Shown here one piece after another: positions 17,156 through 43,570 of a stretch of DNA of 64,000 bases. The position numbers were made by a program, and so were the translations under genes. The notes below the pieces were generated by a model. It was not told where the DNA came from, searched no databases, and saw only the letters and a program-made list of their open reading frames with translations. Source of the DNA: a virus (lineage: Duplodnaviria; Caudoviricetes); IMG/VR virus record IMGVR_UViG_3300032007_000084, positions 1,565-65,564 of that record; one strand, 5' to 3'. Positions within the stretch are counted from its first letter, which is position 1. Each line of letters starts with the position of its first letter.

Positions 17156-17198
17156 ACTGGTAAAAGGTTTGCCAAATCCTGTAGAAAGGAGAACGACT

Positions 17199-23100: not shown

Positions 23101-26100
23101 AAGAAAGTTTCCGTCAGCAACTTCTTGCGGCTCTTCGTGAAGGTCGTCAGATTATGCTTGGTGGAGATAAAAAGAAAGAAAGCTTGCTTTCTGATATCTT
23201 GGATATGCTGAAAGGTGCTGGTGTACTTGGAGCAATTCTTGCTGCATTGAATGCACTTTCTCGCATCTTAAGTGGTAAATTTGGTGGTAATTATCATGAT
23301 ACACGAGTTGTTCGTGATCTTGCTCAAGGAGCTCTTCAAACAGAGCTTGGTCAAAAAGCGAAGAAAACAGCTCGTGAAAAACTTGATAAGGCAGCCAAAG
23401 TAATGAAAGAAAAAATGAAAGCTGCAAGAGACCTGATTAATGAAAAAGGAATTGGAAAGACTTTCATGGAAAACACGATGATTGGTCGTGGACTTAATCG
23501 TTTTGTAGTCCAACCTGTAAAGAAAGTGAAGAACGGTGTACAGGAAGGCTATCGTGCAGTTAAAAAAGGCGTAACAAATAAGATTGATGAAATTGCATTG
23601 CAAATGAAGTATGGACCAAGAGATCTTCTCTATGATAATGATAAAGGAGAAATGGTCCATAAACGTTGGAATAAAAATTATGTTGATCCTGAAACTGGGA
23701 AGAAATTTGGTAAATATATTGAATCAACGGATGGAAGTTTACATGATATTCAATGGATGCGTGAGCAGGAAAAAGCCGCTGGAAGAGCACCTGATCAAGC
23801 AAGGAAAGATATGTATAAGAATATTCGGGCGAAAGCCGCAAAGCTTACAAACCCGTTTGGAATTCGTACGAAACTTTCTGAGTTCGGAGGAAGAATGTAT
23901 AAAGCTGGATCCGAACCGTTTAAGAAAGCATGGAATGGATATACTACGAAATCAGGAAAACAAGTTGCAGGTGTAAAGAAAATTGGTAGATTTGCTCGCG
24001 ATGCTGCAAAGAAAGGTGCTAAAAAAGCAGCTAATTTTTCATTAGAAGCAACGAAAATTGCTGGAAAATTAGCACTTGCTGGTGCATTTTCTCCTATTAC
24101 AGCAGGATACTTTGCCGCAAAAGGAGGAAAGAAACTTATAAATCTTGCAGAAAATAAACTTCCTGCGATGATTGAAAAAGGAAAAAATGAAATTGGAAAG
24201 TTTGCATCATGGGTGGCTAGTTCTGATACTGTAAAAAATGCTAAGAAAGGAATTCGTAGTGTAAAGAAAGGTATTGGAACTGCAAAGAAAGCAATTAGTG
24301 ATGAAGTAGGTTTGATTTATAAAGAAGGAAAAGAAAATGTTGCTAGAAGATATGGAGCTGCAAAGAAAGCAGTTGGAAACCAGATTGAAAAAGTAAAAAA
24401 TCTTCCAAAGAAAGCTTGGAACAGTAAAGTTGTTAAGAAAGCAAGATTTAATGTTGAAACGACAAAAGAAATCCTGCAAAAGCGGGCATCTGATAAAATT
24501 TCTGATATCAGCAAAGCTGTTGGAGGATACGCAGATTCTGTTGTAGGATGGTTTAGTCGTAAGAAGAAAGATATTGTTAAAGAATTAGATAAGGTTACCA
24601 TTCATGGTACCGAATTGACAAAGATTCCAGGAGCTCTTGCGAAGCAAGCGGAAACAGAAGCCGCTACTATCTTTGGCATGGTTCGTTCAGGAGGAGCACA
24701 ACTTGCTCAATCTGGACCAATTCAAGCAATGATGAGCGGTGTTCGTACAGCAGCTAGTGTTGCTGTTGCTCCGTTTAAAGCTGTTGGCGGAATGGGAATG
24801 GAGTTGTATCGTTCTGGTGCCCATGCACTGGAATCGATTGGTAAAGCAGGAGCTGAAGCTGCTGAAGAAGTTGGAGAAAAAGCTGCGGAAGCAAAGGCAA
24901 CTTTCACTTCGTTTAAAGATATGCGCTCAAAAATCGTAAAAGAAGCGAAAGGTGGATTGCAGAAATTCAAATCTTTGGCTACAAAAGCAATTTCGTTTAT
25001 TACGAGTAATGAAACAGTTCAGAAGTTCCTTGGAGGAGACGGTGGAGGAAAACTCGCTGAGAAATTCAAGGGAGTTCTTGAAAAAGTTGGACCAAAAGAA
25101 TTCGCAAGTATTGCAAAGAAAGCTGCAACGGCAGCTGCAAAAGTAGCTGGAACTGCTGTAACTCTTGGTTTGTCACAATTAGCATTTTCTGCTTATGATG
25201 CGTATTCTGGTGTAACAGATGCCGCAGAAATGTGGGGAGTTCTTCCAGAAGACTGCACAGCAGGAATGAAAACGGCTGCTGCAATTTTGAATGTTATCAT
25301 GGGTCTTGGACCGATGGTTTATGTTGATCTTGCATTTGAGGCTGTTTATCTTGGAACGTCTATGTTGGGTCAAAGTGACCCGATCAATATTAAACGTGAA
25401 ATTTTGCTGATGATTTATGAATGCTTGCCTGATTCTTATGATGAAGAAGAAGTCAAAGGATTGCAGGATAAAGCAAACTCTGATTATGAAAATTATTTGA
25501 TGGAGCAATATAAGCAAATGACTGGTGCCACGGATGAGCAAATTGCTGGAATGTCTGCGGAACAAAAGAAGCAGGCAATGGAGCAAGCTCAGCAGAATGG
25601 TGCAAAATCAAAAGACGATTATTTGGCTGAAAAGAATGATGCTCATACTCCAGTAATGGATGAAATTCGTGGAACTACACTTGGTTCCTGGTTGTTTGGT
25701 TCAAATGATGAAAATGGTAATTACCAACCTGGATTCTTCTCGAATGCGAAAGACTTCTTGCTTGGTAATCGTAAGAAAGGTCAAAAGAGTGTATTTGGAC
25801 GTGTTTCGGATGCTCTCTTTGGTACGGGTGAAGAAGATGAAAATGGTGATGTCGATAAAGGAATCATTGGAACTGCAAAAGATAAGATAACTGGTTTTGT
25901 TACTGGTATTGGCAATTTCTTTGGTGACATTGGAGACTTTTTGTTCAAAAAATCGATGGATGAAAAGCTTACAATGATTTGGAAATATTTTATTGGTGGT
26001 AATGATGAAAATGGTGAATATCAAATTGGTGTTTTTCCGAAGATTTGGGGAAAGATTAAGGATTTTGGTAATTCTGTATTTAAATTCTTTGATGATATTG

Positions 26101-29100
26101 GAAAGAATTTTGATCAAGCATTGAATACGGATACCGTTGGTAATTCTATCAATCCGATTGGTAGAGCCTTCAGTATCGTAGCAAATGTTGTTCGCGGAAT
26201 GCTTGGATTGGATATGACACAGTCTCCGATTAAAGATAGCATTTCACAGTTCTTGCACATGGATTCGTTTGGTCCATTTACAACTTTCTTTAATTGGATG
26301 GGCGATACGTTTGATAATACCATTGGTTACATGGTAAATGAGATTACTGATAAAGGTGCGATTGCGGGTACCTGGTCAATCATTAAATCCATAGGTCAAG
26401 GTATTTGGAATTGGATTGATAGTGGAACTACTGGAGGTGCAATTGATACTGTTTCGGATGCAGTTAGTGATTGGGCTTCTGGTATTTCAGATACCTTCCA
26501 TAATATTATGGGATGGTTTACAGAACTTTATGATGGAGTATCCAAGGCAGATACTCTTGGAGCAAAATTTGATGTCGTAAAGAATATGTTAAAGGGTCTC
26601 TTTGGTGTTAAGCCAGATGAAGATTTTCTTTCAACAGCATTCGGTAAAATGCAAAAAGCGATTGGTGATGCTTTTGATACAATAAAGCAAAAATGGAATG
26701 ATATTAAAGATTGGTGGGATAAGTTCGATCCTAAGCAGATTTTCTGGGATGCCATGAAGAAAGCTTTCCCGAAATTCACGGAAGCACTGGATGATACGAA
26801 AGCCCGTTGGGAACGAGAACATTCCGAAGATAAAGGAACTGGAATTTATTCTGGCTCTGGTTATAGTAGAACTGCAACCATTCGTGGTGCAGCGAATATT
26901 ATGAAGAGTTATGGATTTAATCCGAATGCTTCTGGATCTGGAAATAGTGAATATGGTACATATACACAGAATGATAGTGCATGGGGTTCAAAACGTACCA
27001 TTGCAAATGGTTCGATGTCACAAGTTGGTTGTGGTCCGACTACGCTTGCAAATGGTATGAATTCAGCATTTGGTTTGAATATGACTCCTATGCAAGCTGC
27101 TAGTCTGATTCAACCAGGTGATCTTCCTGTGGATGGATCTCCTGGAGTAACTGCAAATTACTTCCCCGAGGCAGTGAATGCTCTTGGTGGAGAATATATT
27201 GGTTTGGATCCGAATAATCCTCGTAGTGTAGAAGCTGCTTTGCAATCTGGCTTTACCATGGTTGCTGGTGGCAAATCCATGGATAATGGAACGTCCCAGG
27301 CCTTTACGGCTGGTGGGCACTATACGATGCTCAAAGGTGGATATACGAAGGGTGGTATTCCTTATACGTACTCTTATGATCCACTGGGCGGGAATCGTGA
27401 AAAACCGATTGCTTTGGATCGGGTACTTCGTGATGTCAATCGCGAAGGTGGGCCGAATATGATTGGTATGATTGCACCAAAGGGTACAGATGCATCTGCA
27501 TTTGATGGAGTCAGTTTCAATAACCCGATGTATCAGTATAATGGATTTGGTAGTGGTACGGGTGATTCCGTTGATAAGATCGGTCTGTTTACACAAAACT
27601 TTGCTACGATTATGAAAGATTATGCGATGGCTGGTTTACTTGGGAAACCATACACAGGATCTGTGTTGAATGATGGTAGTAACCACAGTGGTTCAAATTC
27701 ATCTTCTTCTACAATAAATCCTGGAAATGTATCGGGTGACTATAGAAGTATTGTAAATGGTTTGATGCAGCTTGGATTTACGAAGGTTGCTGCTGCTGGT
27801 ATTGCTGGCAATATCATGCAGGAATCGAGTATGGATCCAAATGCAGATAATGGATCGCATCATGGTCTCGTTCAATGGGATCATGCAAATCGTTGGGCAA
27901 GTGCTGTTGCTTGGTGTCAATCTCATGGATTGGATCCGAATAGCATTGGTGGCCAATTAGCATACGTTGCTGAGGAATGCAAACAAAGTGGTTTGTTCAA
28001 TCAAATGAATGCTTGCTCTTCTCCGGAAGAAGCAGCTCGTCTGTTTGAAGCAGAGTTTGAACGCTCTGGAGGTTCTGAAGTTGGTAAACGTATTAAGTAT
28101 GCGAATGAAGCATTTGCACAAGCTGCTGGTTCTGGACTTCATGGAGGATCAGGACTTTCTCGCGTAAAGAATATTGTTAGTAGGTATATTGGAAGAAGAT
28201 CTTCTGGTACTGGTACAGATAACTGGGCAGAGCAAACCGGAGGAGTTAGTTCCGATGGTGCTCAACCTCAGACGATGGCTATGCTGGATGATCTTGGTGC
28301 TTGGTTTAAGGGTAAAACAGGTCATAAACTGGTTGTTACTGCAATTACGAATGGTAGTCATGCAAGTGGTGAATTCAGCCATGCAAATGGTTGGAAAGCT
28401 GATGTCAATGACTGGTCTGGTCCTGAAGGATTGACTGGTGGTTGGATTCTCGGTGATGGCGGAGCGGAAGTTCCAGGTTCACTTGCTGCTCAATTTGAAG
28501 AATATGGTAACTCCAAGGGTGTTGGAGTTAACTGGGAAAATGATCACTTTGATCTTTCTGCTGCTGGTGATCAATGGGCTGATCCATTACACAGCGGCGG
28601 TAAGACAGGAAATCTTGGTGGATATAACGGTGACGGAAAAGCAACTCCGACATCGGGGAAATCAAGTAGTGGTTCTACAGGTGGAGCAGATCCATGGTCT
28701 ACCTTTATTGCAAATATTGGTACGATTGGTAAAGATTACGCAATGGCTATGCTTGGTGGAAAAGTATATCAGGGCTCGCAATTGCAAACACCTGGATCCA
28801 ATTCTGGACCAAGTGGAAGCAGTGGAAATTATGGCTCTGGTACAGCAGATCCTGATGTGGCAAAAATGCCATATGGTGAAGCTGCGAATAAAGTAGCTGT
28901 GAAATTTAATATGCCTGCAAAACTTGTGTATGCACAAATGCAGCATGAGACAGGTGACTTTGCAAATCCTGGAACGAGTTTCCATAATTACTCTGGCATG
29001 AAATTTGATTGTAACAATGGTCTTGGAACAACTGATGACGGATATACAATCTTTAACAATGATGATGAATGGGTTGATTACTACGGTAAAACACTCGCGA

Positions 29101-32100
29101 ATGAACCAGGTATTCATGAAGCGCATGATGTAGCTTCTTGGGCTCATGCTCTTAAAGAGGGTGGGTATTACGAAGCTACTGAATCCGAATATGCAAATGG
29201 AATGAATAGTTGGATGAAGCAAAATGGTTGGGCTGGTGGTTCTGGTATGGGACTCTCAGCAACTCCATATGGACCATTAACGGCTTCACAAGCAATGATT
29301 AAGAAGTTTGATGATAACGAACAGAAACGTTATGAAGAACTTCGTAAGAAGTATCCGAATATGGATTTCAACCTTCGTGGTTGGAGAGATCGTGATCATC
29401 TTGGTGATAAAGGTAATGCGATTTATCAATCTCCATGGCAAGGAGGGATCGATCAGATTCGTCATGCACAATGGAGCAATGATGGACCAATTACCATGGC
29501 AAAGACTTCTCGGATTGAAGAATTGACGAACCGTTATGGTTTGAAATACGATGACTATGGTAACCTCATTGGTTATGACGGTCCGGATTATAATAAGATT
29601 GATGGTACAGAAGATCAAAATGTGAAGTATAGTAAGCAGGCACAACAGATTGCATTGTATTTGGAGAAGCATCCAGAAGTTGCGAATCAGCCGTCTGCAA
29701 ATGCGATTGAAGCTCCGAAATCTACGGAGGTTCCAAATAATGTAGCGAATGCATCCGTGCAGAAGAATATCCAAAAGGCGAATAATCTCATTGATGAGAG
29801 TACAACCTTCGGAGATTGGACAGCCCGGATGGTAAAGAAATATGGATTAACGTTTGATGAAAATAATAACTTGAAAGAATTAGAAGGTAATATTCCAGAT
29901 GAAATCAATAATACTGGTGTTACGGATTTGGCTACTGTTTATGAAAATGAACGGAAGCAAATGATACTTTGGATTCAAAAGAATCCGAATGGGAAACCAA
30001 GAACCGTAAAAGATATTGAACTCGCAATTAGTCGTGGAATCATCAAATCAGATGACATTAAACGTTATATTTCTCAGTATGGAATTAAGTTTGATCAGCG
30101 TTTGAATGTTCAGATGCCAGATTATACAATTCCGGAAGAAATTAAGATTACAGGTAGTGAAAAGACAGAAGAAGAGATTTACCATAAACAAGGTCTTCAG
30201 ATTCTTGACTATGCACAGAAGCATGGAACGAAGTTGAAGATGCGTCGTTATGGAATTGAAGATTCTGTCTGGGCAAAGCAGCATGGCTATTTTGACGCCA
30301 ATGGGAAACCAACACAACAGTTGTATGGGAAGACAGCCGGTGTCGATGAGGAAGGTTACCTCGTTGATCAGAACGGAATTCGTACACATGCATACAGCCA
30401 GAGAAATGGTGGTCATTACAGCATTGATTCTCGTGGTAGAGTGCATCGTCGTGGATTCTGGTCGAAGCTGTTCCCGAATCTTTCCGATGCTTGGTATCGC
30501 ATGAAGGATAATCAGGCGTATAATAAAGAATGGAATCGTCGCAGGAGTGCTGGAGAAATTCCAGGTGCTGTTCTCAGCTATTCTGGATCTGGTCTTGCTA
30601 ATCAGCAATATTATCGTGATTCTGCTGCGCAATATGGGATTCCTAATGATGTGGTTGAGAATTGGGTCAAGATGGACCAAGGAATCAGCGCAAAATGGGA
30701 TGACTTTAAAGCAAGAGTTAAAGCAAATGGTGGAGTTCTCACTCCAGAATTATTGCAAGAGCAGAAAGCTCTTCGTCATGAGAATGGTTTAATTGCTAAT
30801 CAGATTGGTAAAGAACGTCGTAAGTATACGGATGGTAAACCAAGTATTCCTTCTTATGATACACAAGTTCAAAATACAGTTGATAAAATGAACAAAGCGC
30901 CTGCATATTCAAATATGCCAGATGCTCAAAAGAAAGCAATGGCTGGCAGAACAGCTCAGGTGAATGCTAGAATTGCTGAAGCGAAAGCTAAGCAAGCAAC
31001 ACCTCCAGTAGTTGCTCAAAAACCAGTTGCAAAACCGGTAGAAGTTGCAAAGAATGATTTACCAACACCGAAAACAGTGCAAGAAATTAAAGCTCAGCAT
31101 AATGCAAAACTTGTTGAAATGGCTCAAAAAGCTAAGATTACAGAATCTGCGAATACTGTAAAGAAAAATGATATTACAACTCCAATGCAAGAAGCAGTTA
31201 ACACGGCAACGTCGTCTAATAAAAAAGATGCGCTTTCTGGTGTAGATACTTCTGGCGATTGGACTGCCCGTATGGTTAAGAAATATGGATTAAACTTTGA
31301 TGAAAATAATAATTTGAAAGAACTTGGAAAGAATATACCAGATGAAATTAATAATACAGGTGTTAATGATTTAAATACCATTTATGAAAATGAACGGAAG
31401 CAGGTTATGGAATGGATTCGTAAGAATCCAAACGGAAAACCAAAGTCTGCGAATGAAATTGAAACAGCTTTTAAGCGTGGTTTGATTAATCAGGATACAA
31501 TTAAGAAATATACGGAAAAGTTTGGACTTAAATTTGATGAAGCATTGAATGTATCAATGCCAGATTATGAAGTCCCAGAAGAAATGAAGATTACTGGAAA
31601 CGAGAAAGATGAAAATGAAATTTACCATAAACAAGCGCTTCAAATTGCTGACTATGCGCAAAAGCATGGTGAAAAATTGAAGATGCGGAAATATGGTATT
31701 GAAGATTCTGTGTGGTATAAGAGGACACATGGAGATGTGTCAGATTATGGAAAGACAGCTCGTGTCGATGAAAACGGTAACTTGGTTGACGCTGCTGGAT
31801 TGCAAACACATGCGTACACGCAACGCCATAAAGGACATTACACGGCTGACTCTCGTGGTAGAGTTCATCGTCGTGGTTTACTGTCGAAACTGTTCCCGAA
31901 CCTCTCTGATAAATGGTATCGGATGAAGGATAATCAGGAATACAATAAGCAGTATAATGCGAAGATGAAAGAAATCAAGCAGAATGGTATTGAAGCAACT
32001 GTTGAGAAAGATAAAGCGAATAAGATTGAAAGTGATACGAATACGATCAAATCGATTGTAAGTCGTTATAAACTGACTCCCGATGATTTCGATAGTTATG

Positions 32101-32807
32101 GAAATTTGACAAAGATGGAAATTCCACCGGAGTTGAAGATTGATGGAACGGAAACCTCTGATGAGATTAAGTATCATAAGCAAGGGGAACAGATTCGTCT
32201 CTATGCGAAGATGCATGATGTGGAGCAAAAGACGAATGAATCTGTTACCAAAGCGGCAGATGCAAAGATCGAAGAAGTTTCTCAGAATATGGAGAAAGCA
32301 GTTTCTCAGGAAACAGCAGCAAAAACTTCTCCTGAGGTGAAGAATGCTCCATTGTCTCCTGAGACGATGAATGGAAATAACACTGTAACTGCTACCGGTA
32401 CAACTGCTGCGAGCAATGTACTTGGCAATGCATCAAGGGTCGATCGTTATATTGCAGAGAATAGTGCTGCAACCATGGATGCTCTGATTAATGAAGTTCA
32501 GAAATTGGATATCCATAGTGAAATGAATACGTTGATTGGATGCATGAATACCTTGATCAAAAATCAGGTAGAAGGTGCAAAGATCATTAGTAAAGCTTCC
32601 TCATCCAACGGAAACGCTGGTTCTGGGATGGCAGATGAAGCCTTAAGGGCGATGAGTAAGAATGTTCAGAATAACCGTTCGATTGCTCCTCCTCCGGCAC
32701 AAGGCCATGGAGGAAATAAGACGAATATTAGTAAAGGAAATGATCCATCGGCAACTCATCAGAAAGCCATGCAAATGGCAATGGGTGGTCAGATGGCAGC
32801 AGGCTGA
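17199..32807 (+). CDS. giant tape-measure / virion-associated multi-enzyme lysin (~5,200 aa)
   Basis: AAGGAG RBS before ATG 17199. Long helical and Gly-rich hydrophobic regions. C39-like peptidase (YTQND..GCGPT, ~26961-27478), phage tail lysozyme (GIAGNIMQES..GLVQW, ~27759-28125), M15-like peptidase (SHANGWKAD..DHFD, ~28280-28565) and GH73-like glucosaminidase (AQMQHETG..NYSGMK..GGYY, ~28881-29228). Confidence 0.85.
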   Translation: MARKRGGSWVANFGRSVAFGLGNAAMDNMTTVRSLKDDNEEFMKNVYETMKDIKNLQSTIIDKYYDSSEDAKEVKDALKDLKENGSKGFKNFLKNGTIGLSDEEREKNEMKAFGMEDMDFDLGDLDSGEDDLEKALAGVDEDEDLMTPMEKKTSDIGNAQLKAVNDNTRAEVAIGQRTANAIENVAKVTTNQTEILAGGIAAGNKLQANIAESNAALQTALSNRVVTGLGTLNETANKLVAFNTDIMGRQIDASMKFYTDSLTELQKISSILERAFPEDKGREQRESAYSESGLDMGRLNINGYLKQVRRNFDDTTAGMMISQFADPQTIKMFAADPLGVGAEMAFSFMMPAVLEKSMKKFDESISEFIPALIGKITDYGENGEGPLTWLAKLFGVPLPSSKINVRNYEKGPVPFDGITHRTINQVIPRYLSEIVGLLGGERMMYDYNEARFKTNEEIKKDVDREKESDVHMAMDFDTMEKYRSEFKKLRHYGEGEKGRKQDEQNDKDLERIFKAIAMSGENTIDVKNIGKYLEGKDIGAEAKAIFQAITNRMDYMDKYHLMNAPKKFAQYQYDRYGRRGKTDYKYDYMADNFDRRRSEDSFHMSDEESYELQKLIKEEQRSKQYKTEMTTQQKKRLKELRKKEEEIENGTYRIDEKPQEVQKQVSTIDKILETNNQSLNEIKSIHELLSNMVTSGLKVIPMGSIPGYGSGRRQRRRRNRGNANVPPIPPAPEQNPSTNEANNSEVLTTEENPYNAPKGFDSEGRITIKQDDSNDIEELLENALEEGLNKSGVNQDWVSDFQDKLDEIASNEKDKEEEKKEAEQEKKEEEGREENFLDRFMQMLHSPIQTVAVFMDKVSAGLYNLFFDTEGNKDSIVKTLKSSFDDLVKGIKDTLHEEFFNPLKNFVYKDIMEGGLRNSVNNTITKVRNFFTDAFEEDYEEEKPTVRNVKGENAENAPTAAFGRILSFAFGGKITDAELTEKRKMAAKSAKNGGPWVRINQTKKVKINGRDVILHKGEYYNPKTSEVIPTSNDEGNLRSDQKEEYRYADGDGLNEYIKKYMKENGFDKNDGFNPNNQNQKVANNIEKIAENTKQTTEAVDKQTNKIDQQKKEEKKEAQEKKTPNSIKENVKSLFGEIKDDLSMYIFGKNTDKYGKQKPLVNQIQDMFAVGTKKFNNFFFGQTEYDSKESMDQYKESFKKSLPKGIARGLVFGGGLTAISAAGGFGLLGSLFLPGGPIGSVILGMGIGLLSENRKLKDWLFGPADENGNRKQGGVVPKSFINFFQRNKKTIIGAGAFGTLQGITGISVIGSLLSLLPGGMGGAIGFLPGLGVSIIGPTVFSIAAAMAFKSNRVQNILFGKPDEKTGKRIGGVLQSESAKTLRKQLPSIVTGAAIGAGSSLVLGNMGILGSLALGPWTSAIIGGAIGFGLTSKKFKEALFGKQDKNGNFISGGIVDRMKKFFKVEFYNKFANFLAKQRVEFKKFFQLRLLDLKKIFTPAKLLGKQILEGAKKSIKNVFDMITGQVKSIFSPILKPFQKAFSWLFHTVMDAGSSIANASMSVARGLITAPLKLVTAPFNLLGRHYRKNGTDEQKAAMAEADKKDAEARERIQKQYESEKRIMENANRARDIETDNARKHGYKLSPEELEEKTRKWQAEQEALANSKKQVEMHEQSNEILDAILHRAESIEEELKRNASIDRQVSRQGKVRSTIKTNKRRRNLIQAVQNNKTFNAQTANAGMEFAGKALSGEDRDEASYNAISKMLLRLGRSKKGKKRDKLISRISGLSKKSVYNVLNKMQAKGTDVSSISKIFGHVTSEGKPTSEDEPHAFGFLSDIAGAAKSLFGAKDAVSSALQSAHTKDAIGQGIIEGNKTNNKMKDTATSNRRERRLSTGEIAPASSDQGNNKNAQKREMRNGFADFVEKAFGVTKGVAQSIGTALGAAGGKAKSWVKERKIDKGLTAQGIKEARKEESFRQQLLAALREGRQIMLGGDKKKESLLSDILDMLKGAGVLGAILAALNALSRILSGKFGGNYHDTRVVRDLAQGALQTELGQKAKKTAREKLDKAAKVMKEKMKAARDLINEKGIGKTFMENTMIGRGLNRFVVQPVKKVKNGVQEGYRAVKKGVTNKIDEIALQMKYGPRDLLYDNDKGEMVHKRWNKNYVDPETGKKFGKYIESTDGSLHDIQWMREQEKAAGRAPDQARKDMYKNIRAKAAKLTNPFGIRTKLSEFGGRMYKAGSEPFKKAWNGYTTKSGKQVAGVKKIGRFARDAAKKGAKKAANFSLEATKIAGKLALAGAFSPITAGYFAAKGGKKLINLAENKLPAMIEKGKNEIGKFASWVASSDTVKNAKKGIRSVKKGIGTAKKAISDEVGLIYKEGKENVARRYGAAKKAVGNQIEKVKNLPKKAWNSKVVKKARFNVETTKEILQKRASDKISDISKAVGGYADSVVGWFSRKKKDIVKELDKVTIHGTELTKIPGALAKQAETEAATIFGMVRSGGAQLAQSGPIQAMMSGVRTAASVAVAPFKAVGGMGMELYRSGAHALESIGKAGAEAAEEVGEKAAEAKATFTSFKDMRSKIVKEAKGGLQKFKSLATKAISFITSNETVQKFLGGDGGGKLAEKFKGVLEKVGPKEFASIAKKAATAAAKVAGTAVTLGLSQLAFSAYDAYSGVTDAAEMWGVLPEDCTAGMKTAAAILNVIMGLGPMVYVDLAFEAVYLGTSMLGQSDPINIKREILLMIYECLPDSYDEEEVKGLQDKANSDYENYLMEQYKQMTGATDEQIAGMSAEQKKQAMEQAQQNGAKSKDDYLAEKNDAHTPVMDEIRGTTLGSWLFGSNDENGNYQPGFFSNAKDFLLGNRKKGQKSVFGRVSDALFGTGEEDENGDVDKGIIGTAKDKITGFVTGIGNFFGDIGDFLFKKSMDEKLTMIWKYFIGGNDENGEYQIGVFPKIWGKIKDFGNSVFKFFDDIGKNFDQALNTDTVGNSINPIGRAFSIVANVVRGMLGLDMTQSPIKDSISQFLHMDSFGPFTTFFNWMGDTFDNTIGYMVNEITDKGAIAGTWSIIKSIGQGIWNWIDSGTTGGAIDTVSDAVSDWASGISDTFHNIMGWFTELYDGVSKADTLGAKFDVVKNMLKGLFGVKPDEDFLSTAFGKMQKAIGDAFDTIKQKWNDIKDWWDKFDPKQIFWDAMKKAFPKFTEALDDTKARWEREHSEDKGTGIYSGSGYSRTATIRGAANIMKSYGFNPNASGSGNSEYGTYTQNDSAWGSKRTIANGSMSQVGCGPTTLANGMNSAFGLNMTPMQAASLIQPGDLPVDGSPGVTANYFPEAVNALGGEYIGLDPNNPRSVEAALQSGFTMVAGGKSMDNGTSQAFTAGGHYTMLKGGYTKGGIPYTYSYDPLGGNREKPIALDRVLRDVNREGGPNMIGMIAPKGTDASAFDGVSFNNPMYQYNGFGSGTGDSVDKIGLFTQNFATIMKDYAMAGLLGKPYTGSVLNDGSNHSGSNSSSSTINPGNVSGDYRSIVNGLMQLGFTKVAAAGIAGNIMQESSMDPNADNGSHHGLVQWDHANRWASAVAWCQSHGLDPNSIGGQLAYVAEECKQSGLFNQMNACSSPEEAARLFEAEFERSGGSEVGKRIKYANEAFAQAAGSGLHGGSGLSRVKNIVSRYIGRRSSGTGTDNWAEQTGGVSSDGAQPQTMAMLDDLGAWFKGKTGHKLVVTAITNGSHASGEFSHANGWKADVNDWSGPEGLTGGWILGDGGAEVPGSLAAQFEEYGNSKGVGVNWENDHFDLSAAGDQWADPLHSGGKTGNLGGYNGDGKATPTSGKSSSGSTGGADPWSTFIANIGTIGKDYAMAMLGGKVYQGSQLQTPGSNSGPSGSSGNYGSGTADPDVAKMPYGEAANKVAVKFNMPAKLVYAQMQHETGDFANPGTSFHNYSGMKFDCNNGLGTTDDGYTIFNNDDEWVDYYGKTLANEPGIHEAHDVASWAHALKEGGYYEATESEYANGMNSWMKQNGWAGGSGMGLSATPYGPLTASQAMIKKFDDNEQKRYEELRKKYPNMDFNLRGWRDRDHLGDKGNAIYQSPWQGGIDQIRHAQWSNDGPITMAKTSRIEELTNRYGLKYDDYGNLIGYDGPDYNKIDGTEDQNVKYSKQAQQIALYLEKHPEVANQPSANAIEAPKSTEVPNNVANASVQKNIQKANNLIDESTTFGDWTARMVKKYGLTFDENNNLKELEGNIPDEINNTGVTDLATVYENERKQMILWIQKNPNGKPRTVKDIELAISRGIIKSDDIKRYISQYGIKFDQRLNVQMPDYTIPEEIKITGSEKTEEEIYHKQGLQILDYAQKHGTKLKMRRYGIEDSVWAKQHGYFDANGKPTQQLYGKTAGVDEEGYLVDQNGIRTHAYSQRNGGHYSIDSRGRVHRRGFWSKLFPNLSDAWYRMKDNQAYNKEWNRRRSAGEIPGAVLSYSGSGLANQQYYRDSAAQYGIPNDVVENWVKMDQGISAKWDDFKARVKANGGVLTPELLQEQKALRHENGLIANQIGKERRKYTDGKPSIPSYDTQVQNTVDKMNKAPAYSNMPDAQKKAMAGRTAQVNARIAEAKAKQATPPVVAQKPVAKPVEVAKNDLPTPKTVQEIKAQHNAKLVEMAQKAKITESANTVKKNDITTPMQEAVNTATSSNKKDALSGVDTSGDWTARMVKKYGLNFDENNNLKELGKNIPDEINNTGVNDLNTIYENERKQVMEWIRKNPNGKPKSANEIETAFKRGLINQDTIKKYTEKFGLKFDEALNVSMPDYEVPEEMKITGNEKDENEIYHKQALQIADYAQKHGEKLKMRKYGIEDSVWYKRTHGDVSDYGKTARVDENGNLVDAAGLQTHAYTQRHKGHYTADSRGRVHRRGLLSKLFPNLSDKWYRMKDNQEYNKQYNAKMKEIKQNGIEATVEKDKANKIESDTNTIKSIVSRYKLTPDDFDSYGNLTKMEIPPELKIDGTETSDEIKYHKQGEQIRLYAKMHDVEQKTNESVTKAADAKIEEVSQNMEKAVSQETAAKTSPEVKNAPLSPETMNGNNTVTATGTTAASNVLGNASRVDRYIAENSAATMDALINEVQKLDIHSEMNTLIGCMNTLIKNQVEGAKIISKASSSNGNAGSGMADEALRAMSKNVQNNRSIAPPPAQGHGGNKTNISKGNDPSATHQKAMQMAMGGQMAAG
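29811..31949 (+). repeat. internal ~235-aa duplication (29811-30527 and 31254-31949)
   Basis: Both copies begin GDWTARMVKKYGL and end RVHRRG..SKLFPNLSD.WYRMKDNQ.YNK, with many synonymous differences. Confidence 0.92.
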
Positions 32808-32866: not shown

Positions 32867-32920
32867 CTTCCCTTTTGACATGCATTTAATGTAGAATGAT
32901 AAAGGAGGGTTCAAAAAAAA

Positions 32921-34831
32921 ATGCGTATTGTTACAAAGACCCCAGTAAATGTACGTAAGGGTCCTGGTATGGCATTTGAAGCCGTAAAACAAATCAATGC
33001 AAGAACAGAATTAGACGCATCCGAATTCAAAAAAGATGAAGGAAAAATCGGATGGTATAAAGTTTCTGGATTAGGATGGATTTGCGGTGAATATGTAACA
33101 CTTGCCAAAGATGCAGTAGCAAATGAAAACCATCCAAAAGATATGAATAGTAAACTAAACTTACAGCAATTTGCTAGTGTGGGCCTCGGTGGAAAAACTG
33201 TTGATGTAAGTGGAATTGCAGGAGGAATAGGTTCATCAACACAATCAACGGATCCCTCAAGTGTGCTAACAAGTATTTTTGGAAGTGCTGGAGAAGGTCA
33301 AGGACCTGATATTTTTCTAAGAAAACGTATCTTTGGTGCTCCATATCAATTACGTAATTCAGAAGATATACGTGATTATTCCGCAGGTGATGGAGATCTA
33401 GGTTTAAACTATAAGGAAGCAGTTGGAGAATCTGCTTTTGTAAGTATTCTTCCAGGGCAACCATTATTTCTTCCTGATCTGGATGATGATTCAAGAAAAT
33501 CATATTTCCAAGCGTTTGATAAAATACTCGATCCATTGAAAAGTGATCAAGGAAATATTCTGAATAAAATTACGCAAAATACAGGTCAATCATTACTTGG
33601 ATCAAATGTTGATATGCGATATTTTACATTTCAGCAACGTTATACAAGATTCATGCAATATATGAATACTCTCTGTTGGATGTTTGCAAATTTCCTTGGA
33701 GTTGGAGATTATCCGGTACCAGGAGATGGAACTCCATTTGGGGAATACAACTGGGCAAATTGGCATCTTTCAAATGCATTTGGAAGAACTGCGAATAATG
33801 TTTCAGAATTTTCTGCAACTGGAGGAAATAGTTTAAAGGCCGGTGCTGATGAACTCATGAATGGTACTGCTGATGTATTTAGCAAGATCGGTGCTGTTCT
33901 TCCTTCACTTGGTGAAGGTGAAGATCTTCCAGATCCATCGGCAACTATTTTAGAAAAATTTGATATGACAGATTACTGGACAGATTTCTTCATTAGTCCA
34001 AATATTTCATACAATGAAAGTTTTACGAACCAAACGAAAGAATCCATGCTTGCAAACTTGATGGCTGGTGCATCCGATATGAGTAAGGAAATTTCATTCT
34101 TACTTGCATCAGGTATTCCTGAGGCTGATCGTACAGCAAGCCAGCAAAATGTGCAAAAAATGCTTGACAAAGCAGGAAGCATGCTTGCTGCAAATAGTAA
34201 CGGTGTCCTTGGTCGTATTCTTCATGGAGCATCTACGATTATCAATGGAGCAAATATGGTATTTCCAGAGATTTGGGGATCTTCCAGTTATTCAAGAAGT
34301 TTCAATATTGAAATTTCTTTGAAAACTCCATATGGATGCAGAGATTCTATCTATAAAGATATTATCGTCCCCATGTGTTTCTGGATAGCTCTTACAGCTC
34401 CTCGTCAAAATACGATTAATAGCTATAGCGCACCATTCTTGTGTCAATTCTTTATTCCAGGATTTTGTGCATCTGAAATGGCAATCGTAGAATCACTCAC
34501 AATTACAAAAGGCGGAGATGGGTCAGCTTGGTCTATTGATGGTCTTCCACTAGAAGTAAATCTTTCAATTAGCTTGAAAGATCTCTATAGTAATTTGATG
34601 ATTTCGATTATTAACGATTGCTCTCCTGTGGATGCATATAACTTGCTCTGGAATAATTCTCTCATTGATTATATTGCAGTTGGCTCTGGTATGGATATTC
34701 ATTACTCCGAGTGGCTAACAAAACTTAAAATTGCAGCCATGCTGGAGAAGAATTCTATTACTGGTATTTTCCAGCATGCGAAAGACGAGTTCAACGAAGC
34801 AATTGCTACTACGATTGCATCTGGTCGTTAA
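32921..34831 (+). CDS. tail/baseplate structural protein with N-terminal SH3b domain
   Basis: N-terminus VNVRKGPG...GWYKV...GWICGEYV (SH3b). C-terminus PEIWGSSSYSRSFNIEISL, FCQFFIPG and ITKGGDG.WS.DGLP.EV.LSISLKDLY resemble tube/hub-type folds. Confidence 0.7.
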   Translation: MRIVTKTPVNVRKGPGMAFEAVKQINARTELDASEFKKDEGKIGWYKVSGLGWICGEYVTLAKDAVANENHPKDMNSKLNLQQFASVGLGGKTVDVSGIAGGIGSSTQSTDPSSVLTSIFGSAGEGQGPDIFLRKRIFGAPYQLRNSEDIRDYSAGDGDLGLNYKEAVGESAFVSILPGQPLFLPDLDDDSRKSYFQAFDKILDPLKSDQGNILNKITQNTGQSLLGSNVDMRYFTFQQRYTRFMQYMNTLCWMFANFLGVGDYPVPGDGTPFGEYNWANWHLSNAFGRTANNVSEFSATGGNSLKAGADELMNGTADVFSKIGAVLPSLGEGEDLPDPSATILEKFDMTDYWTDFFISPNISYNESFTNQTKESMLANLMAGASDMSKEISFLLASGIPEADRTASQQNVQKMLDKAGSMLAANSNGVLGRILHGASTIINGANMVFPEIWGSSSYSRSFNIEISLKTPYGCRDSIYKDIIVPMCFWIALTAPRQNTINSYSAPFLCQFFIPGFCASEMAIVESLTITKGGDGSAWSIDGLPLEVNLSISLKDLYSNLMISIINDCSPVDAYNLLWNNSLIDYIAVGSGMDIHYSEWLTKLKIAAMLEKNSITGIFQHAKDEFNEAIATTIASGR

Positions 34832-38072: not shown

Positions 38073-40847
38073 TCATACAATATCAATGGTAATTTGAGGC
38101 GTTCTCTCGCCATCTTTAATCAGCATGTCAATATTCAAGTATTCTGGTACAATGGTAGACGTCTCAACGATTCCATTGATGATATTATACTCATTGACAT
38201 CAGATTCCAATGCTTGTACCGTTGCATCATAGTTATTCATTCCAATGAACGTAATATACGTCAACGTGCTGAAATGGTTCATGCACTTATTCACAATCGT
38301 AGAGAGATAGAAACTTGGACTGGATACCAGTGAAAGGTCAGTGGTTTCTACCATCTCTTTGATGTATGCTTTAACGTTCTCAACTTCTGCTTCCACATTG
38401 GAAGTGATATTAAACTTCGCACGGAAGTGCAGTTTAATATTGACACGATCAATGTGTTCCGGATCTTCCGATTTTGTATCAGCCAAGAAGTAATGCTGAC
38501 TGTAACCATACGTATTAAAGAACTTGATATCTACGTTATAGTTATTCGTCAGATGATCAACTGCATCTGCAATATACTCATAGATATTCGTAAAGCTTTG
38601 GATAAACGTTTCTCTTGTACCAGAAATCGTAAGATAGTTTGCTTTTACCAGAGGAATTGCTTCCAAACGGAAACCATATGATCCGGTTTGTTCCCTAACG
38701 GAATATTGTACAAACGAACGAATCTGTTCCACTGGAATAGCAAAGTTCGCTAATTGATCTTTCAAAACGTATTCATTCGTAAGACTAAATTCTTTCAGCT
38801 CATCAAAACGATTCCAAGTCGTCGTTTTCGTAATCGTTCCATCCGGATACTTGTAAAGCACATAGCATCCAAGCGTACATTTTGTACCAGGAATCAATAC
38901 TGGATCTTTAATCGTTGCAGAATATTTATCTACCGTTCTGAATCCAGATACAATTTGAATTTCTCCATTGGAAGAAATGTAATCATTCGTCTGAATCGAT
39001 CCTTCAAAGTAGTAATACTCGGAATCAAACTTCGTCAGTTGTAATGGAATCAGCATAAGCTTACTTCCATTATCACTCTTTACATCAATGATAACTTTCA
39101 GGTTATCATTATCAATGTAGGTATGACCATCTGTTTCATTAAAGAAGGTACGTTGACCTTCTTCCACAGGCGTATCATCTTCTACCAAGCTCATTGCTTC
39201 CTCTGGAAGAATTGCTGTAGGAGATAATTGCACTGAGATTTTGTAACTATCTTCACCAATCAATGCATTCCGTTCAATACTCAAACTATCAATGATAAAC
39301 TGATAGAAAGAGTTTGTATTCGTATTTACACTGTTAATTGGAAGAGTTTCGGAGATACTATTCATATAGAATCCAACTCCCAACGGACTTGTACTGATGA
39401 CCGTAAGGAAAGGATTAATATAAATGAAATCGGTAGAATCTTCAAACTCATCAAAGTTTGTATTATAGTTCAAATCTTGACGAATGGCTGCATAAGGATT
39501 CGTATTATCACCGATATACTGGAAGACTTTTCCTGCCTTTACAATGTTTCGTCCCGTTTGTTTCATGGAGTAATCAATATCCGTAGAACGGATACGAATA
39601 TCCAACGTATTCGTAGGAACTACATTATTATCCTTATCGCGGAAGAGAATAAATGCACTATACAGACGTTCAAATACATCGTCCCGTTTCCGCATAAAGA
39701 TAATTTGAGAATTCTGTGTAATATGCTCACGAATATCGTTAAAGTACAGATTCAAGTCATTTGTGGTACTGAAGGATTTCATAGTGGAATATGCCTTGAC
39801 TGTTTCATTCTTCAGTTGATCAATCGTCTTTCGATCCGATCCACCGGTAGAAGAACCTACGACATTTCCCATGAATACAATACCACGGTTGCTTGCATAC
39901 TTATCATACTTTGCAGCAATCGAAACTTGATCCCCTGTATATTCTTCAAAGTTACCTGTAGATCCTTGTGTCGTATAAATTTCCATAACGATATCAGAAT
40001 TGTATTCTGGTTGGAAATAGTTATCATCGACACTAAAGCTAATTTGCAAGGTATTTTCATCCGTTAATTTATAGAAGCAGAAAGGCACATCTAACGCTGC
40101 ACTATTATACAACTGCTTCTTTAACTGCGTATATGTACTAGCCCCAGGGGGTTTATAATACATCTCAAAGTTTGCCAATTGATCTGAGAATGTATAATCC
40201 ATTTCTACGGCATTGATAATATCGTTATTCACAATGGTATCAGAAATACTCTTCTTCGCTACTTGATGAATTCCAACCTGCAATGCGATATAACGATTTC
40301 CATTATCCGAAACATAAATGCTGCTACGGATATATGGATTCTTAATTGTACTAAGAGAGTTATTCTTATCCAGAATATACTGAGCAGAATGAACCCAACC
40401 TGCTGTCGTATTCTTACTAATAATTTGAAGGTCATAATCCATCATGAATGGTAATCCACCAATGGAAATGACCATTCCAGAGTCAATGTTGAAATAACTA
40501 TAGTCGCCACTAGACGATCCCGCATCAAGTACAGATTCTTCGGATACCAACAGAGTAAACTGGCAACTCGCAGGAGTTGCAAAGATATTACTCAACTGAT
40601 AGATCAAAGCATGGTTATAAATCGATTCTGGCAATTCTGCTAACTGAGGAAAAGATTCTTTATACATAGATGCAATCGTAAAGAGTGCATCATTTGTAAT
40701 ATCACTCATCGTTTCTGTAATATATCCAAACAAACCAACATGCAAATCATTAATGTTATCAATGTCAGTAAAGTATTTTGGAGCGATGGTATTCACCATA
40801 TAATCCTTGATGTTATACCGACTCGTTCCATTCTTCAATGTAGGCAT
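38073..40847 (-). CDS. baseplate wedge protein (T4 gp6 / baseplate J-like)
   Basis: 924 aa with GGSDRKTIDQLK...STTNDL..YF pattern, in the structural block. Confidence 0.65.
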   Translation of the reverse strand: MPTLKNGTSRYNIKDYMVNTIAPKYFTDIDNINDLHVGLFGYITETMSDITNDALFTIASMYKESFPQLAELPESIYNHALIYQLSNIFATPASCQFTLLVSEESVLDAGSSSGDYSYFNIDSGMVISIGGLPFMMDYDLQIISKNTTAGWVHSAQYILDKNNSLSTIKNPYIRSSIYVSDNGNRYIALQVGIHQVAKKSISDTIVNNDIINAVEMDYTFSDQLANFEMYYKPPGASTYTQLKKQLYNSAALDVPFCFYKLTDENTLQISFSVDDNYFQPEYNSDIVMEIYTTQGSTGNFEEYTGDQVSIAAKYDKYASNRGIVFMGNVVGSSTGGSDRKTIDQLKNETVKAYSTMKSFSTTNDLNLYFNDIREHITQNSQIIFMRKRDDVFERLYSAFILFRDKDNNVVPTNTLDIRIRSTDIDYSMKQTGRNIVKAGKVFQYIGDNTNPYAAIRQDLNYNTNFDEFEDSTDFIYINPFLTVISTSPLGVGFYMNSISETLPINSVNTNTNSFYQFIIDSLSIERNALIGEDSYKISVQLSPTAILPEEAMSLVEDDTPVEEGQRTFFNETDGHTYIDNDNLKVIIDVKSDNGSKLMLIPLQLTKFDSEYYYFEGSIQTNDYISSNGEIQIVSGFRTVDKYSATIKDPVLIPGTKCTLGCYVLYKYPDGTITKTTTWNRFDELKEFSLTNEYVLKDQLANFAIPVEQIRSFVQYSVREQTGSYGFRLEAIPLVKANYLTISGTRETFIQSFTNIYEYIADAVDHLTNNYNVDIKFFNTYGYSQHYFLADTKSEDPEHIDRVNIKLHFRAKFNITSNVEAEVENVKAYIKEMVETTDLSLVSSPSFYLSTIVNKCMNHFSTLTYITFIGMNNYDATVQALESDVNEYNIINGIVETSTIVPEYLNIDMLIKDGERTPQITIDIV

Positions 40848-41524: not shown

Positions 41525-43570
41525 TTAGTTCCCAGGAGCACGGAATTTTAACTTAAAGAGACGAGATCCATCATTCGTATCTACGAATGGTGCACCCACA
41601 AACGATTTATTGACCATATGCGTATCAGGGTTATAGACTGGCATATACTCAAAATCTCCGTCACTTAAATTATTAAATTCCACAATGTTCAATGGGCTAT
41701 AGTCATCTTTCCGAGAGAATGCGAAAGGAACACTGTATGATGGATGCTTAATCGTAGTCCCCAACTGATCCGAAAATCCACTGGAAGGAATCGACGTTGG
41801 GAAACATCCTGTATACTTCGTCCAAAAGATAATTTCATTCTCTGATGTTGCTTTACACAGGAAGTAATAGATGGAAGTAGCATAATCCAATTCATGATTA
41901 TCAATGTATTGCTGCTTTGGCATACACTCTCCACGGTAAACTGCATTGATGTATTCACACCAAAGTTTAATCAATTTATACACAGAGAGCATATCATCAT
42001 CTGTAAATCCAACATTCACAGTGCCTGCTGTTTTGGATTTAATCAGTGATGTACCGTAACTATACTTCCATCCAGTAAATGTATCACCAGATTCTGTTGT
42101 TTCCAGAACTTCATCCGATACATCTAGCTGTGTGACTGCATGGGTAAAGATTGGAATGAACTTGTGGGGAACTTCTGCATCATCACCCATGAGATATTTC
42201 GTAAGGATTGCATGAGATTTCTTCAAATTCTCAACCAATGGACTAAATCTTGCAACACCTTGAATATTTCCTTGCGTTGCCGTACGAAGTTGCAAGTTTA
42301 GATTCAAATCTGGTCTTGTGAAGAATACATATCCTCTTGTGCCAGCCAATTCATTATCCGGTGTAGGAACACGGAAACGATTGAACTGTTCTACAATCGT
42401 CTTACGGTCAATATCAATATTCAACTCTTCACGAATTGCATGCATACTATCGGAGAATTCATTCAAATCACGATCATAAAGTGTTTTCCAAACTTTAATC
42501 TCTTCTTCATCCCGATGTGGTTCCAAAATCTCTGTGGAATAATTGTAATCTTCCCATACAAGATCTCCAAATCGTCTGGTAATGCTATGACCAGTGATAC
42601 CTTTGTATTTGAAGTAGTCTTTCATACGCTGGGTAACCGGTGCATAGTTGAATGCCCAAAGATCACCCTGACCCGCATAAACCTGATACCAGTGAATACC
42701 GTAACCAGAGGTAACACTTTTTCCTCCGCCATTCCAGTAATCGTACTTTCCAGGTCCATACACTTCATGCCAGAAATCTGGAATATTACCACTATTGATG
42801 AAAGCAGAATATTCTCCATTGAAGATGGCTTGCCAATTCATACCAAAGAGATCAAAGAGTGCACTCAAAACTGCTTCAATGTCAAATCCGACAACGAAGC
42901 TTAGTTTATCCATGATCCATCCACCGAGTAAACCAAGAGCATTCTCTAGCATGAGGTCAAATAGATTTCCTTCTCCAACATCTCCTACTGTAATGCCATT
43001 CAACAGTTTACCTACGGTACTATCACTCTTTGTAGCAAAGATAGACGTCAGTTTATTATTCTGCATGGCTTGGTATTCTCTTCCACCTTGGGACATACCA
43101 CCTGCAAATCCACCACCAACGCCACTATAAATTCCACCAGTTGCAGCAGCTCCAATTCCTGCTGCAACCTTTGCTGTACTTTTTATCGTAGAGATTCCCT
43201 TTAAAATACTTGCAGTCGAGAATCTCTGTAAATCAAATTCAAATTCTTTCGTGAAACCATCTTTTCCATAGTCTCCTAAAATCGTACTTAATCCGAGTTT
43301 TTCTTTTTCATTCAACTTTCGTTTTACGAGAACTTTGGATTTATGGTTTCCTTGATAGTAGTCAATATCTTGAAGGACCTGTACATCTTCCATATGTACC
43401 GTAGATCCATCCGATAATTGGTAATAAGCATCTAATCCAATACGTTTAATTCCTTGGATTCGAAAGGTTTGATCCTTCGGAATAACCCCAGAGATATAAC
43501 TAGAATCACCAGGAACTCCGGAGTATGCATACGTATCTTTCTTCGCTTTACCGATTACATTCATATGCAT
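41525..43570 (-). CDS. tail-tube-fold baseplate/tube-initiator protein with N-terminal SH3-like domain
   Basis: C-terminal GYVFFTRPDLN..., FTDDDMLSVYKLIKLWCEYI, LDYATSIYYF and FWTKYTGCFPTSIP (gp19/gp48/gp54-like). N-terminus YAYSGVP...YYQLSDG is SH3-like. Late motif at 43600-43611. Confidence 0.65.
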   Translation of the reverse strand: MHMNVIGKAKKDTYAYSGVPGDSSYISGVIPKDQTFRIQGIKRIGLDAYYQLSDGSTVHMEDVQVLQDIDYYQGNHKSKVLVKRKLNEKEKLGLSTILGDYGKDGFTKEFEFDLQRFSTASILKGISTIKSTAKVAAGIGAAATGGIYSGVGGGFAGGMSQGGREYQAMQNNKLTSIFATKSDSTVGKLLNGITVGDVGEGNLFDLMLENALGLLGGWIMDKLSFVVGFDIEAVLSALFDLFGMNWQAIFNGEYSAFINSGNIPDFWHEVYGPGKYDYWNGGGKSVTSGYGIHWYQVYAGQGDLWAFNYAPVTQRMKDYFKYKGITGHSITRRFGDLVWEDYNYSTEILEPHRDEEEIKVWKTLYDRDLNEFSDSMHAIREELNIDIDRKTIVEQFNRFRVPTPDNELAGTRGYVFFTRPDLNLNLQLRTATQGNIQGVARFSPLVENLKKSHAILTKYLMGDDAEVPHKFIPIFTHAVTQLDVSDEVLETTESGDTFTGWKYSYGTSLIKSKTAGTVNVGFTDDDMLSVYKLIKLWCEYINAVYRGECMPKQQYIDNHELDYATSIYYFLCKATSENEIIFWTKYTGCFPTSIPSSGFSDQLGTTIKHPSYSVPFAFSRKDDYSPLNIVEFNNLSDGDFEYMPVYNPDTHMVNKSFVGAPFVDTNDGSRLFKLKFRAPGN

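Follow-up and report, generated by a model that had tools for sequence, protein, structure and literature searches.

The leader of pre-bL27 in Bacillota, Fusobacteria and their relatives is cut by the cysteine protease Prp (MEROPS C108), an essential enzyme and antibiotic target known for trimming short N-terminal leaders from L27 and from a few staphylococcal phage head proteins. The capsid protein of phage 80alpha carries the leader KLNLQHF-A. According to the available part of the 80alpha study, the leaders of capsid protein gp47 and scaffold gp46 are cut by host Prp, and the major tail protein of phi13 bears this motif too (PMC5744158). Natural Prp substrates described so far are all N-terminal (PMC9405229 and the available part of PMC5744158), the published consensus being MLxx(D/N)LQ(F/L)F'A(S/H)KK, and each Prp is reported to be narrowly tuned to its own leader (PMC9405229). 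Ac-KLNLQFF-CMK is bound to S. aureus Prp along P1 to P7 in a crystal structure, with F1, L4 and L6 of the peptide in hydrophobic environments, Q3 buried and N5 making an intrapeptide bond (PMC9261936). A second set of described systems concerns the jumbo phage baseplate. In the available part of the phiKZ atlas, gp182 is a hexamer, the "spacer" ring, with the tube initiator gp88 on one side and the hub on the other (PMC13250141), and the available part of the Goslar preprint describes gp203 and gp62 as a two-layer initiator complex likened to T4 gp48 and gp54. As far as their available text goes, the papers on these proteins of Gram-negative phages (phiKZ gp182 and gp88, Goslar gp203 and gp62) mention neither an SH3b domain nor processing.

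Here we describe a spacer protein in which a Prp-type site lies behind a folded SH3b domain. The window, the whole stretch of 64,000 nucleotides that was analyzed, is a 65.5-kb IMG/VR viral contig minus its first 1.5 kb; CheckV completeness of the contig is 26%, and a phage genome of roughly 250 kb is therefore implied. The features that bear on the argument are as follows, in window coordinates.

17169 to 32807, plus strand: giant virion protein of 5212 aa, directly upstream of the spacer gene in a phiKZ gp181-like position (domain matches)
32921 to 34831, plus strand: baseplate "spacer" ring protein of 636 aa, SH3b plus linker plus core (PDB profile matches; phrog_20401, virion structural protein)
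32945 to 33097, plus strand: SH3b domain, residues 9-59 (SH3_3 E 1.1e-5; solved SH3b chains E 2.8e-8; pLDDT about 77, all-beta)
33125 to 33433, plus strand: linker with the motif, residues 69-171, of low model confidence and probably flexible (AF2 pLDDT 23-33 over residues 70-170)
33152 to 33178, plus strand: L27-leader-type motif K78-L-N-L-Q-Q-F-A-S86, proposed scissile bond F84-A85 (pattern match; identity to natural L27 leaders)
41525 to 43570, minus strand: tail tube initiator of 681 aa, small N-terminal beta domain plus linker plus tube-fold C-terminus (PF23971; Foldseek 9xqs_I E 5e-9)
43217 to 43237, minus strand: second L27-type motif F112-D-L-Q-R-F-S118, at the N-domain/linker junction of the tube initiator (pattern match; junctions of relatives)

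The 636-aa reading frame is preceded by a strong Shine-Dalgarno sequence (AAAGGAGGG, 32901-32909) and falls into an N-terminal SH3b domain, a linker and a core. The SH3_3 match (PF08239) on residues 9-59 scores 25.9 bits, slightly below the Pfam cut-off of 27 bits; a profile of 12 homologues matches the solved SH3b domains 8b2h_A (E 2.8e-8) and 8b2g_A (E 5.1e-7), homologues carry a precomputed PF08239 assignment, and ten SH3b residues are invariant in 12 of 12 homologues, with the motif as without it. Against the PDB, the core of the same profile (positions 226-586) matches Goslar gp203 (11lx_H, E 4e-25) and phiKZ gp182 (9xqs_K, PHIKZ182, E 1.4e-24), along with a chain of entry 36za titled "capsid decorator gp77" (E 8e-25). 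Profile comparison thus identifies the protein, which had been called simply a tail protein, more precisely as a baseplate hub ring protein, the homologue of phiKZ gp182 and Goslar gp203 in the position of T4 gp48; its role as a hexameric beta-barrel ring would carry over from the phiKZ and Goslar papers. As in those phages, whose spacers share the homologous core (E about 1e-24), the gene follows that of a giant lysin. Around residues 3265-4000 the 5212-aa protein encodes Peptidase_C39_2-like, Phage_lysozyme2 and glucosaminidase domains, and it probably combines tape-measure and tail-lysin roles. The neighboring 924-aa and 501-aa reading frames gave no sequence relatives in the PDB. The AF2 monomer of the spacer protein is poor overall (mean pLDDT 44.5; 44-48 for the models of both ring proteins), which makes it soft evidence for disorder, and the placement of the N-terminus in the ring by fold is limited by the poor quality of both models outside the N-terminal domains.

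The motif itself reads as first described: KLNLQQFA occupies residues 78-85 (nt 33152-33175), behind the SH3b domain and ahead of a Gly/Ser-rich stretch, with S86 next and the proposed scissile bond between nt 33172 and 33173. A strict pattern, [LIMVF][ND]LQxF[AS], matches once in six frames of the window, and a looser pattern finds this site and one other, at the tube-initiator junction, in the whole 65.5-kb contig. No Prp-type site occurs elsewhere in the contig, the 5212-aa protein included. From the composition of ORFs of at least 150 aa, 0.015 strict matches are expected per window and about 4e-5 per 70-aa linker, and a chance origin of the spacer motif therefore appears unlikely. L79-N80-L81-Q82-Q83-F84-A85-S86, together with K78, match the consensus at P7, P6, P5, P4, P3, P1, P1' and P2', so that the site agrees with the Prp-contacted positions except at P2, where Q lies outside the published F/L. 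The earlier note's description of the site as internal also stands: the scissile bonds would lie after residue 84 in the spacer and after residue 117 in its partner, beyond the first ~15 precursor residues typical of Prp substrates.

The P2 residue is accounted for by natural L27 leaders. We scanned one genome per prokaryote species with the pattern [ND]LQ[QRH]FAxKKG, in which P2 is restricted to Q, R or H, and among the matches listed 111 of 120 were real L27 genes. Among these 111 the leader types FDLQRFAH (at least 33), LNLQQFAH (at least 22) and LNLQQFAS (at least 10) recur, FDLQRFA being the commonest in the matches listed (33/111), and P2 is Q in 37 and R in 71. LNLQQFAS thus constitutes the leader and first two mature residues of L27 in at least 10 sampled genomes, and the window shares all nine residues of KLNLQQFAS with at least nine L27 leaders among the matches listed. 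Natural leaders with Q or R at P2 are common, and the published F/L consensus at this position is therefore too narrow; by sequence, leaders with Q or R at P2 form a class found in nature, and the spacer site exactly copies one of its members. The earlier assignment to the L27/Prp type is borne out from P7 to P2' by these identical leaders. We tested five genomes whose leaders are of the KLNLQQFA or ILNLQQFA type, and every one encodes Prp; in one of them its gene lies immediately upstream of that for L27. Among the matches listed, Q/R/H-at-P2 leaders also occur in MAGs titled Eremiobacterota/Vulcanimicrobiota, Limnochordales and Alicyclobacillus. We found no nucleotide identity between the phage motif and L27 genes beyond what codon choice accounts for. 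The peptide DMNSKLNLQQFASVGLGG is a candidate substrate for gauging the tolerance of Prps for Q or R at P2.

We compared the junction in 12 full-length homologues (30 to 57% identity). It is canonical in P0001, the window protein (LNLQQFAS), P0002 (IDLQQFSS) and P0008 and P0009 (both INLQQFAP), decayed in the close relatives P0003 (MDLQKNAS) and P0004 (YDPTRNAS), and absent from P0005 to P0007 and P0010 to P0012. The family was extended to 161 members, namely the 12 homologues and the best 150 representatives, one sequence being shared; a canonical site is present in 4 of the 161, and three further remnants were recognized (WLQRFAE, ILQRFDD and FNIQQFED). All eight canonical or remnant motifs sit at residues 77-83, and a core-domain tree places their eight carriers within one 21-member clade (support 99/98), with the motif in 0 of 10 sequences outside it. 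The canonical state requires at least two changes on this tree, for which one gain followed by repeated decay would be the simplest reading. The earlier note had named lack of the motif in orthologues as a refuting result, and the outcome is divided: some diverged orthologues do keep the site at the junction, but canonical sites are few. Because the motif is absent or decayed in most relatives, an obligatory maturation cut is ruled out. AR9 and Staphylococcus phage Machias were considered and rejected as cultured models, their initiators being short; AR9 g213 and Machias gp183 lack the whole N-terminal extension, unlike the 636-aa protein, and neither phage has an [ND]LQxFA motif anywhere.

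Loss in most relatives also invites the reading that the motif has no present role, the linker resembling an L27 leader as a neutral relic or by coincidence, and across the whole broad family LQxF is indeed not much enriched (0.75 versus 0.43 per 1000 residues). We nevertheless regard this as very unlikely, given the chance expectation per linker, the match to natural leaders at nine of nine residues and the recurrence of the motif, which a homologue of 38% identity carries at the corresponding junction and which also appears in a second protein of the complex, unrelated to the spacer. The homologue is the spacer protein of a complete relative, G001 (256,757 bp), whose genome contains a single strict match, GKINLQQFAP, located at the equivalent junction in the orthologue; the genome also has one loose FDIQNFG match. 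Between the 38%-identical proteins P0001 and P0008, seven of eight motif residues are identical versus 12 of 62 in the remaining linker.

The second protein is the 681-aa product of the minus-strand gene. It carries the Pfam "putative tail tube protein" domain and has weak sequence matches to Goslar gp62, and the top Foldseek match of its model is the phiKZ baseplate chain 9xqs_I (E 5e-9), followed by tail-tube folds. It is a tube-initiator ring protein that docks on the spacer, homologous to Goslar gp62 and phiKZ gp88 and in the position of T4 gp54. AF2 predicts a confident beta domain at residues 4-67 and a low-confidence linker at 68-173 that holds FEFDLQRF-STAS at 110-121; both sites thus lie in low-confidence linkers behind confident beta domains. 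A canonical motif is present in 7 of 31 members of the tube-initiator family, always at the N-domain/linker junction and never elsewhere (FDLQRFA twice, FDLQKFA, IDLQLFAS, MDLQLFAE, TNLQLFS and the window's FDLQRFS), and LQxF occurs at this junction in 16 of 31 relatives, with A, S or G as the next residue in 11. DLQLFA is itself an L27 leader type. In G001 the tube initiator lacks the second site, though the spacer keeps its own. Paralogy of the two ring proteins was considered and rejected: BLASTP found no match, and hhalign aligned the N-terminal domains only (E 0.016, probability 2.9%). Pfam finds no SH3 domain in the tube-initiator N-terminus and Foldseek SH3-like matches are weak, so that an SH3-like nature of this domain in the clade of the window phage is weakly suggested. 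In the distant relatives L006 (10001-11632 and 16780-17736) and L009, spacer and initiator both start with a near-identical SH3b domain and have no Prp-type motif, which suggests domain exchange or homogenization between the two hub ring genes.

These observations bear on what the SH3b domain is for. It had been proposed as a removable pro-domain, and the motif does follow it; its strong conservation with or without the motif, and its presence on the partner protein in distant relatives, argue that it is no mere disposable pro-domain. Position-locked conservation of the motif shows selection and says nothing of cutting, and the motif could accordingly be a selected docking element that stays uncut, whether for host Prp (as decoy or recruiter), a chaperone, a hub protein or the giant lysin, with the SH3b domain remaining covalently attached. 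Some junctions retain variants in which P1' is D, E, N or K (P0049, LQRFDD; P0059, IQQFED; P0039 and P0040, LQKFN and LQRFN), which is odd for a pure Prp site, and according to the available part of the 80alpha study assembly requires the scaffold leader but not its cleavage (PMC5744158). The P1'-altered variants, however, belong to lineages in which the remaining motif is also decaying, and the spacer site agrees residue for residue with genuine L27 leaders over the whole span P7 to P2', down to the small residue at P1', for which cutting is the sole need. We consider an uncut docking element unlikely, and favor cleavage.

If the site is cut, the enzyme would most plausibly come from the host. 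The earlier note had allowed for a phage Prp and for a search for its gene; we found no homologue (PF04327) in the 65.5-kb record or in four relatives that are 94 to 100% complete, the complete 257-kb G001 among them, and a host enzyme would therefore be required. The nearest cultured relatives, judged by neighboring genes, are AR9/PBS1-type Bacillus phages, Staphylococcus jumbo phages and one Listeria jumbo phage. This kinship, with which the SH3b, tail lysozyme (muramidase) and glucosaminidase domains are compatible, fits a host in Bacillota, a group that has Prp, and we infer a host with both Prp and a matching L27 leader. A DNA search for a host link among 201 genomes around one L27-matching MAG returned chance matches only. 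One candidate elsewhere in the window (39442-39474), in which ~31 nt resemble the flank of the 16S rRNA 5' end of many small Bacilli genomes at 94% identity, was set aside as an apparent chance match and no CRISPR spacer.

A different protease could in principle act at the same place: a phage enzyme such as the C39-like domain of the 5212-aa protein, one encoded in the other ~75% of the genome (the contig represents about 26%), or another host enzyme. C39 enzymes cut after Gly-Gly, and the giant protein next to the spacer has a Peptidase_C39_2-like domain; when this fold occurs in tail lysins, however, it usually serves as a wall peptidase. Directly after the proposed cut, a stretch (A/S)S(I/V/L)(S/G)LGG (33173-33196, residues 85-92) is conserved in seven homologues whether LQQF survives or not, and a double-glycine site is one idea for it, the C39-like domain being next door. 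Trimming of L27 by another protease is also on record, in S. pneumoniae lacking prp (PMC12324487). Against this, the P-side match to L27 leaders is explained by no other known protease, and the site in G001, which has no Prp of its own, lacks SLGG. We therefore view cleavage by another enzyme as quite improbable, and return to host Prp.

Whether Prp could act behind a folded domain is addressed by published work. Prp cuts FITC-blocked peptides and binds an acetyl-blocked peptide inhibitor (PMC9261936). A His6-SUMO-L27 fusion is likewise cleaved at its leader by the S. pneumoniae enzyme, whether in vitro, inside E. coli that expresses Prp or in lysates (PMC12324487); Prp thus does not need a free N-terminus. 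We found no description in the literature of a natural internal Prp site, or of any Prp site in a jumbo phage. The two phage sites differ from one another at P6, P5 and P2 (LNLQQF-A versus FDLQRF-S), which counts against cleavage of both in view of the reported specificity of Prps.

On balance we lean, by a little, toward cleavage of F84-A85 by host Prp, and probably of F117-S118 in the partner, as an optional and clade-specific detachment of SH3b-type modules. In this model, K78-LNLQQF-AS-86 would be a selected mimic of the host bL27 leader; Prp would bind P7 to P1 and cut between F84 and A85 in the infected cell, severing the 84-residue SH3b module from a spacer-ring core of roughly 60 kDa, and a parallel cut at F117-S118 would probably free the N-terminal beta domain of the tube initiator. 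Processing would be a lineage-specific, dispensable add-on. Because relatives keep the SH3b domain attached without any site, the cut would change a tether rather than remove an obligatory pro-peptide, turning a tethered wall-binding module into one that is free or held non-covalently. We infer the cleavage, its timing and its effect from the motif and its setting, and a bolder version would place the cut in the next host, as the tube tip reaches the cytoplasm, where it would free a plug. More tentatively, and with less confidence than in the cut itself, both stacked initiator rings in one uncultured jumbo-phage clade, probably on Bacillota, may be precursors fused to SH3b-type modules, with Prp as a morphogenetic protease acting at internal sites and the variants LNLQQF, FDLQRF and IDLQLF tracking the host L27 leader.

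If true, the natural substrates of Prp would for the first time include internally cut proteins, and proteins of a baseplate. A domain-releasing internal site would widen the substrate rules of Prp, host-dependent processing would reach beyond head assembly into tail assembly, and motif variants could mark the host, linking uncultured phages to their hosts through L27 leader type.

The proposal carries a known mechanism into new settings, in that the site is internal, the protein part of a baseplate and the phage a jumbo phage. The spacer site has the same recognition sequence as pre-bL27, in which the leader constitutes the first 8 to 12 residues, whereas 77 residues including a folded SH3b domain precede the spacer site, and P3' and P4' are VG in the spacer protein versus KK in L27. 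The SUMO-L27 fusion has a similar layout, with a folded N-terminal domain, leader and body corresponding to SH3b, motif and core; the fusion is artificial, and the 636-aa protein would be its natural equivalent. The closest phage precedent is 80alpha, where a structural protein likewise copies the host L27 leader and is cut by the host protease, and where cleavage is dispensable, as it would be for the optional cut proposed here; according to the available part of that study, its leaders are 13 to 14 residues long and stand at the extreme N-terminus of head/tube proteins of small siphophages (PMC5744158). The spacer site, by contrast, is internal, lies in the baseplate hub rings of a jumbo myophage of roughly 250 kb, and would release a whole domain.
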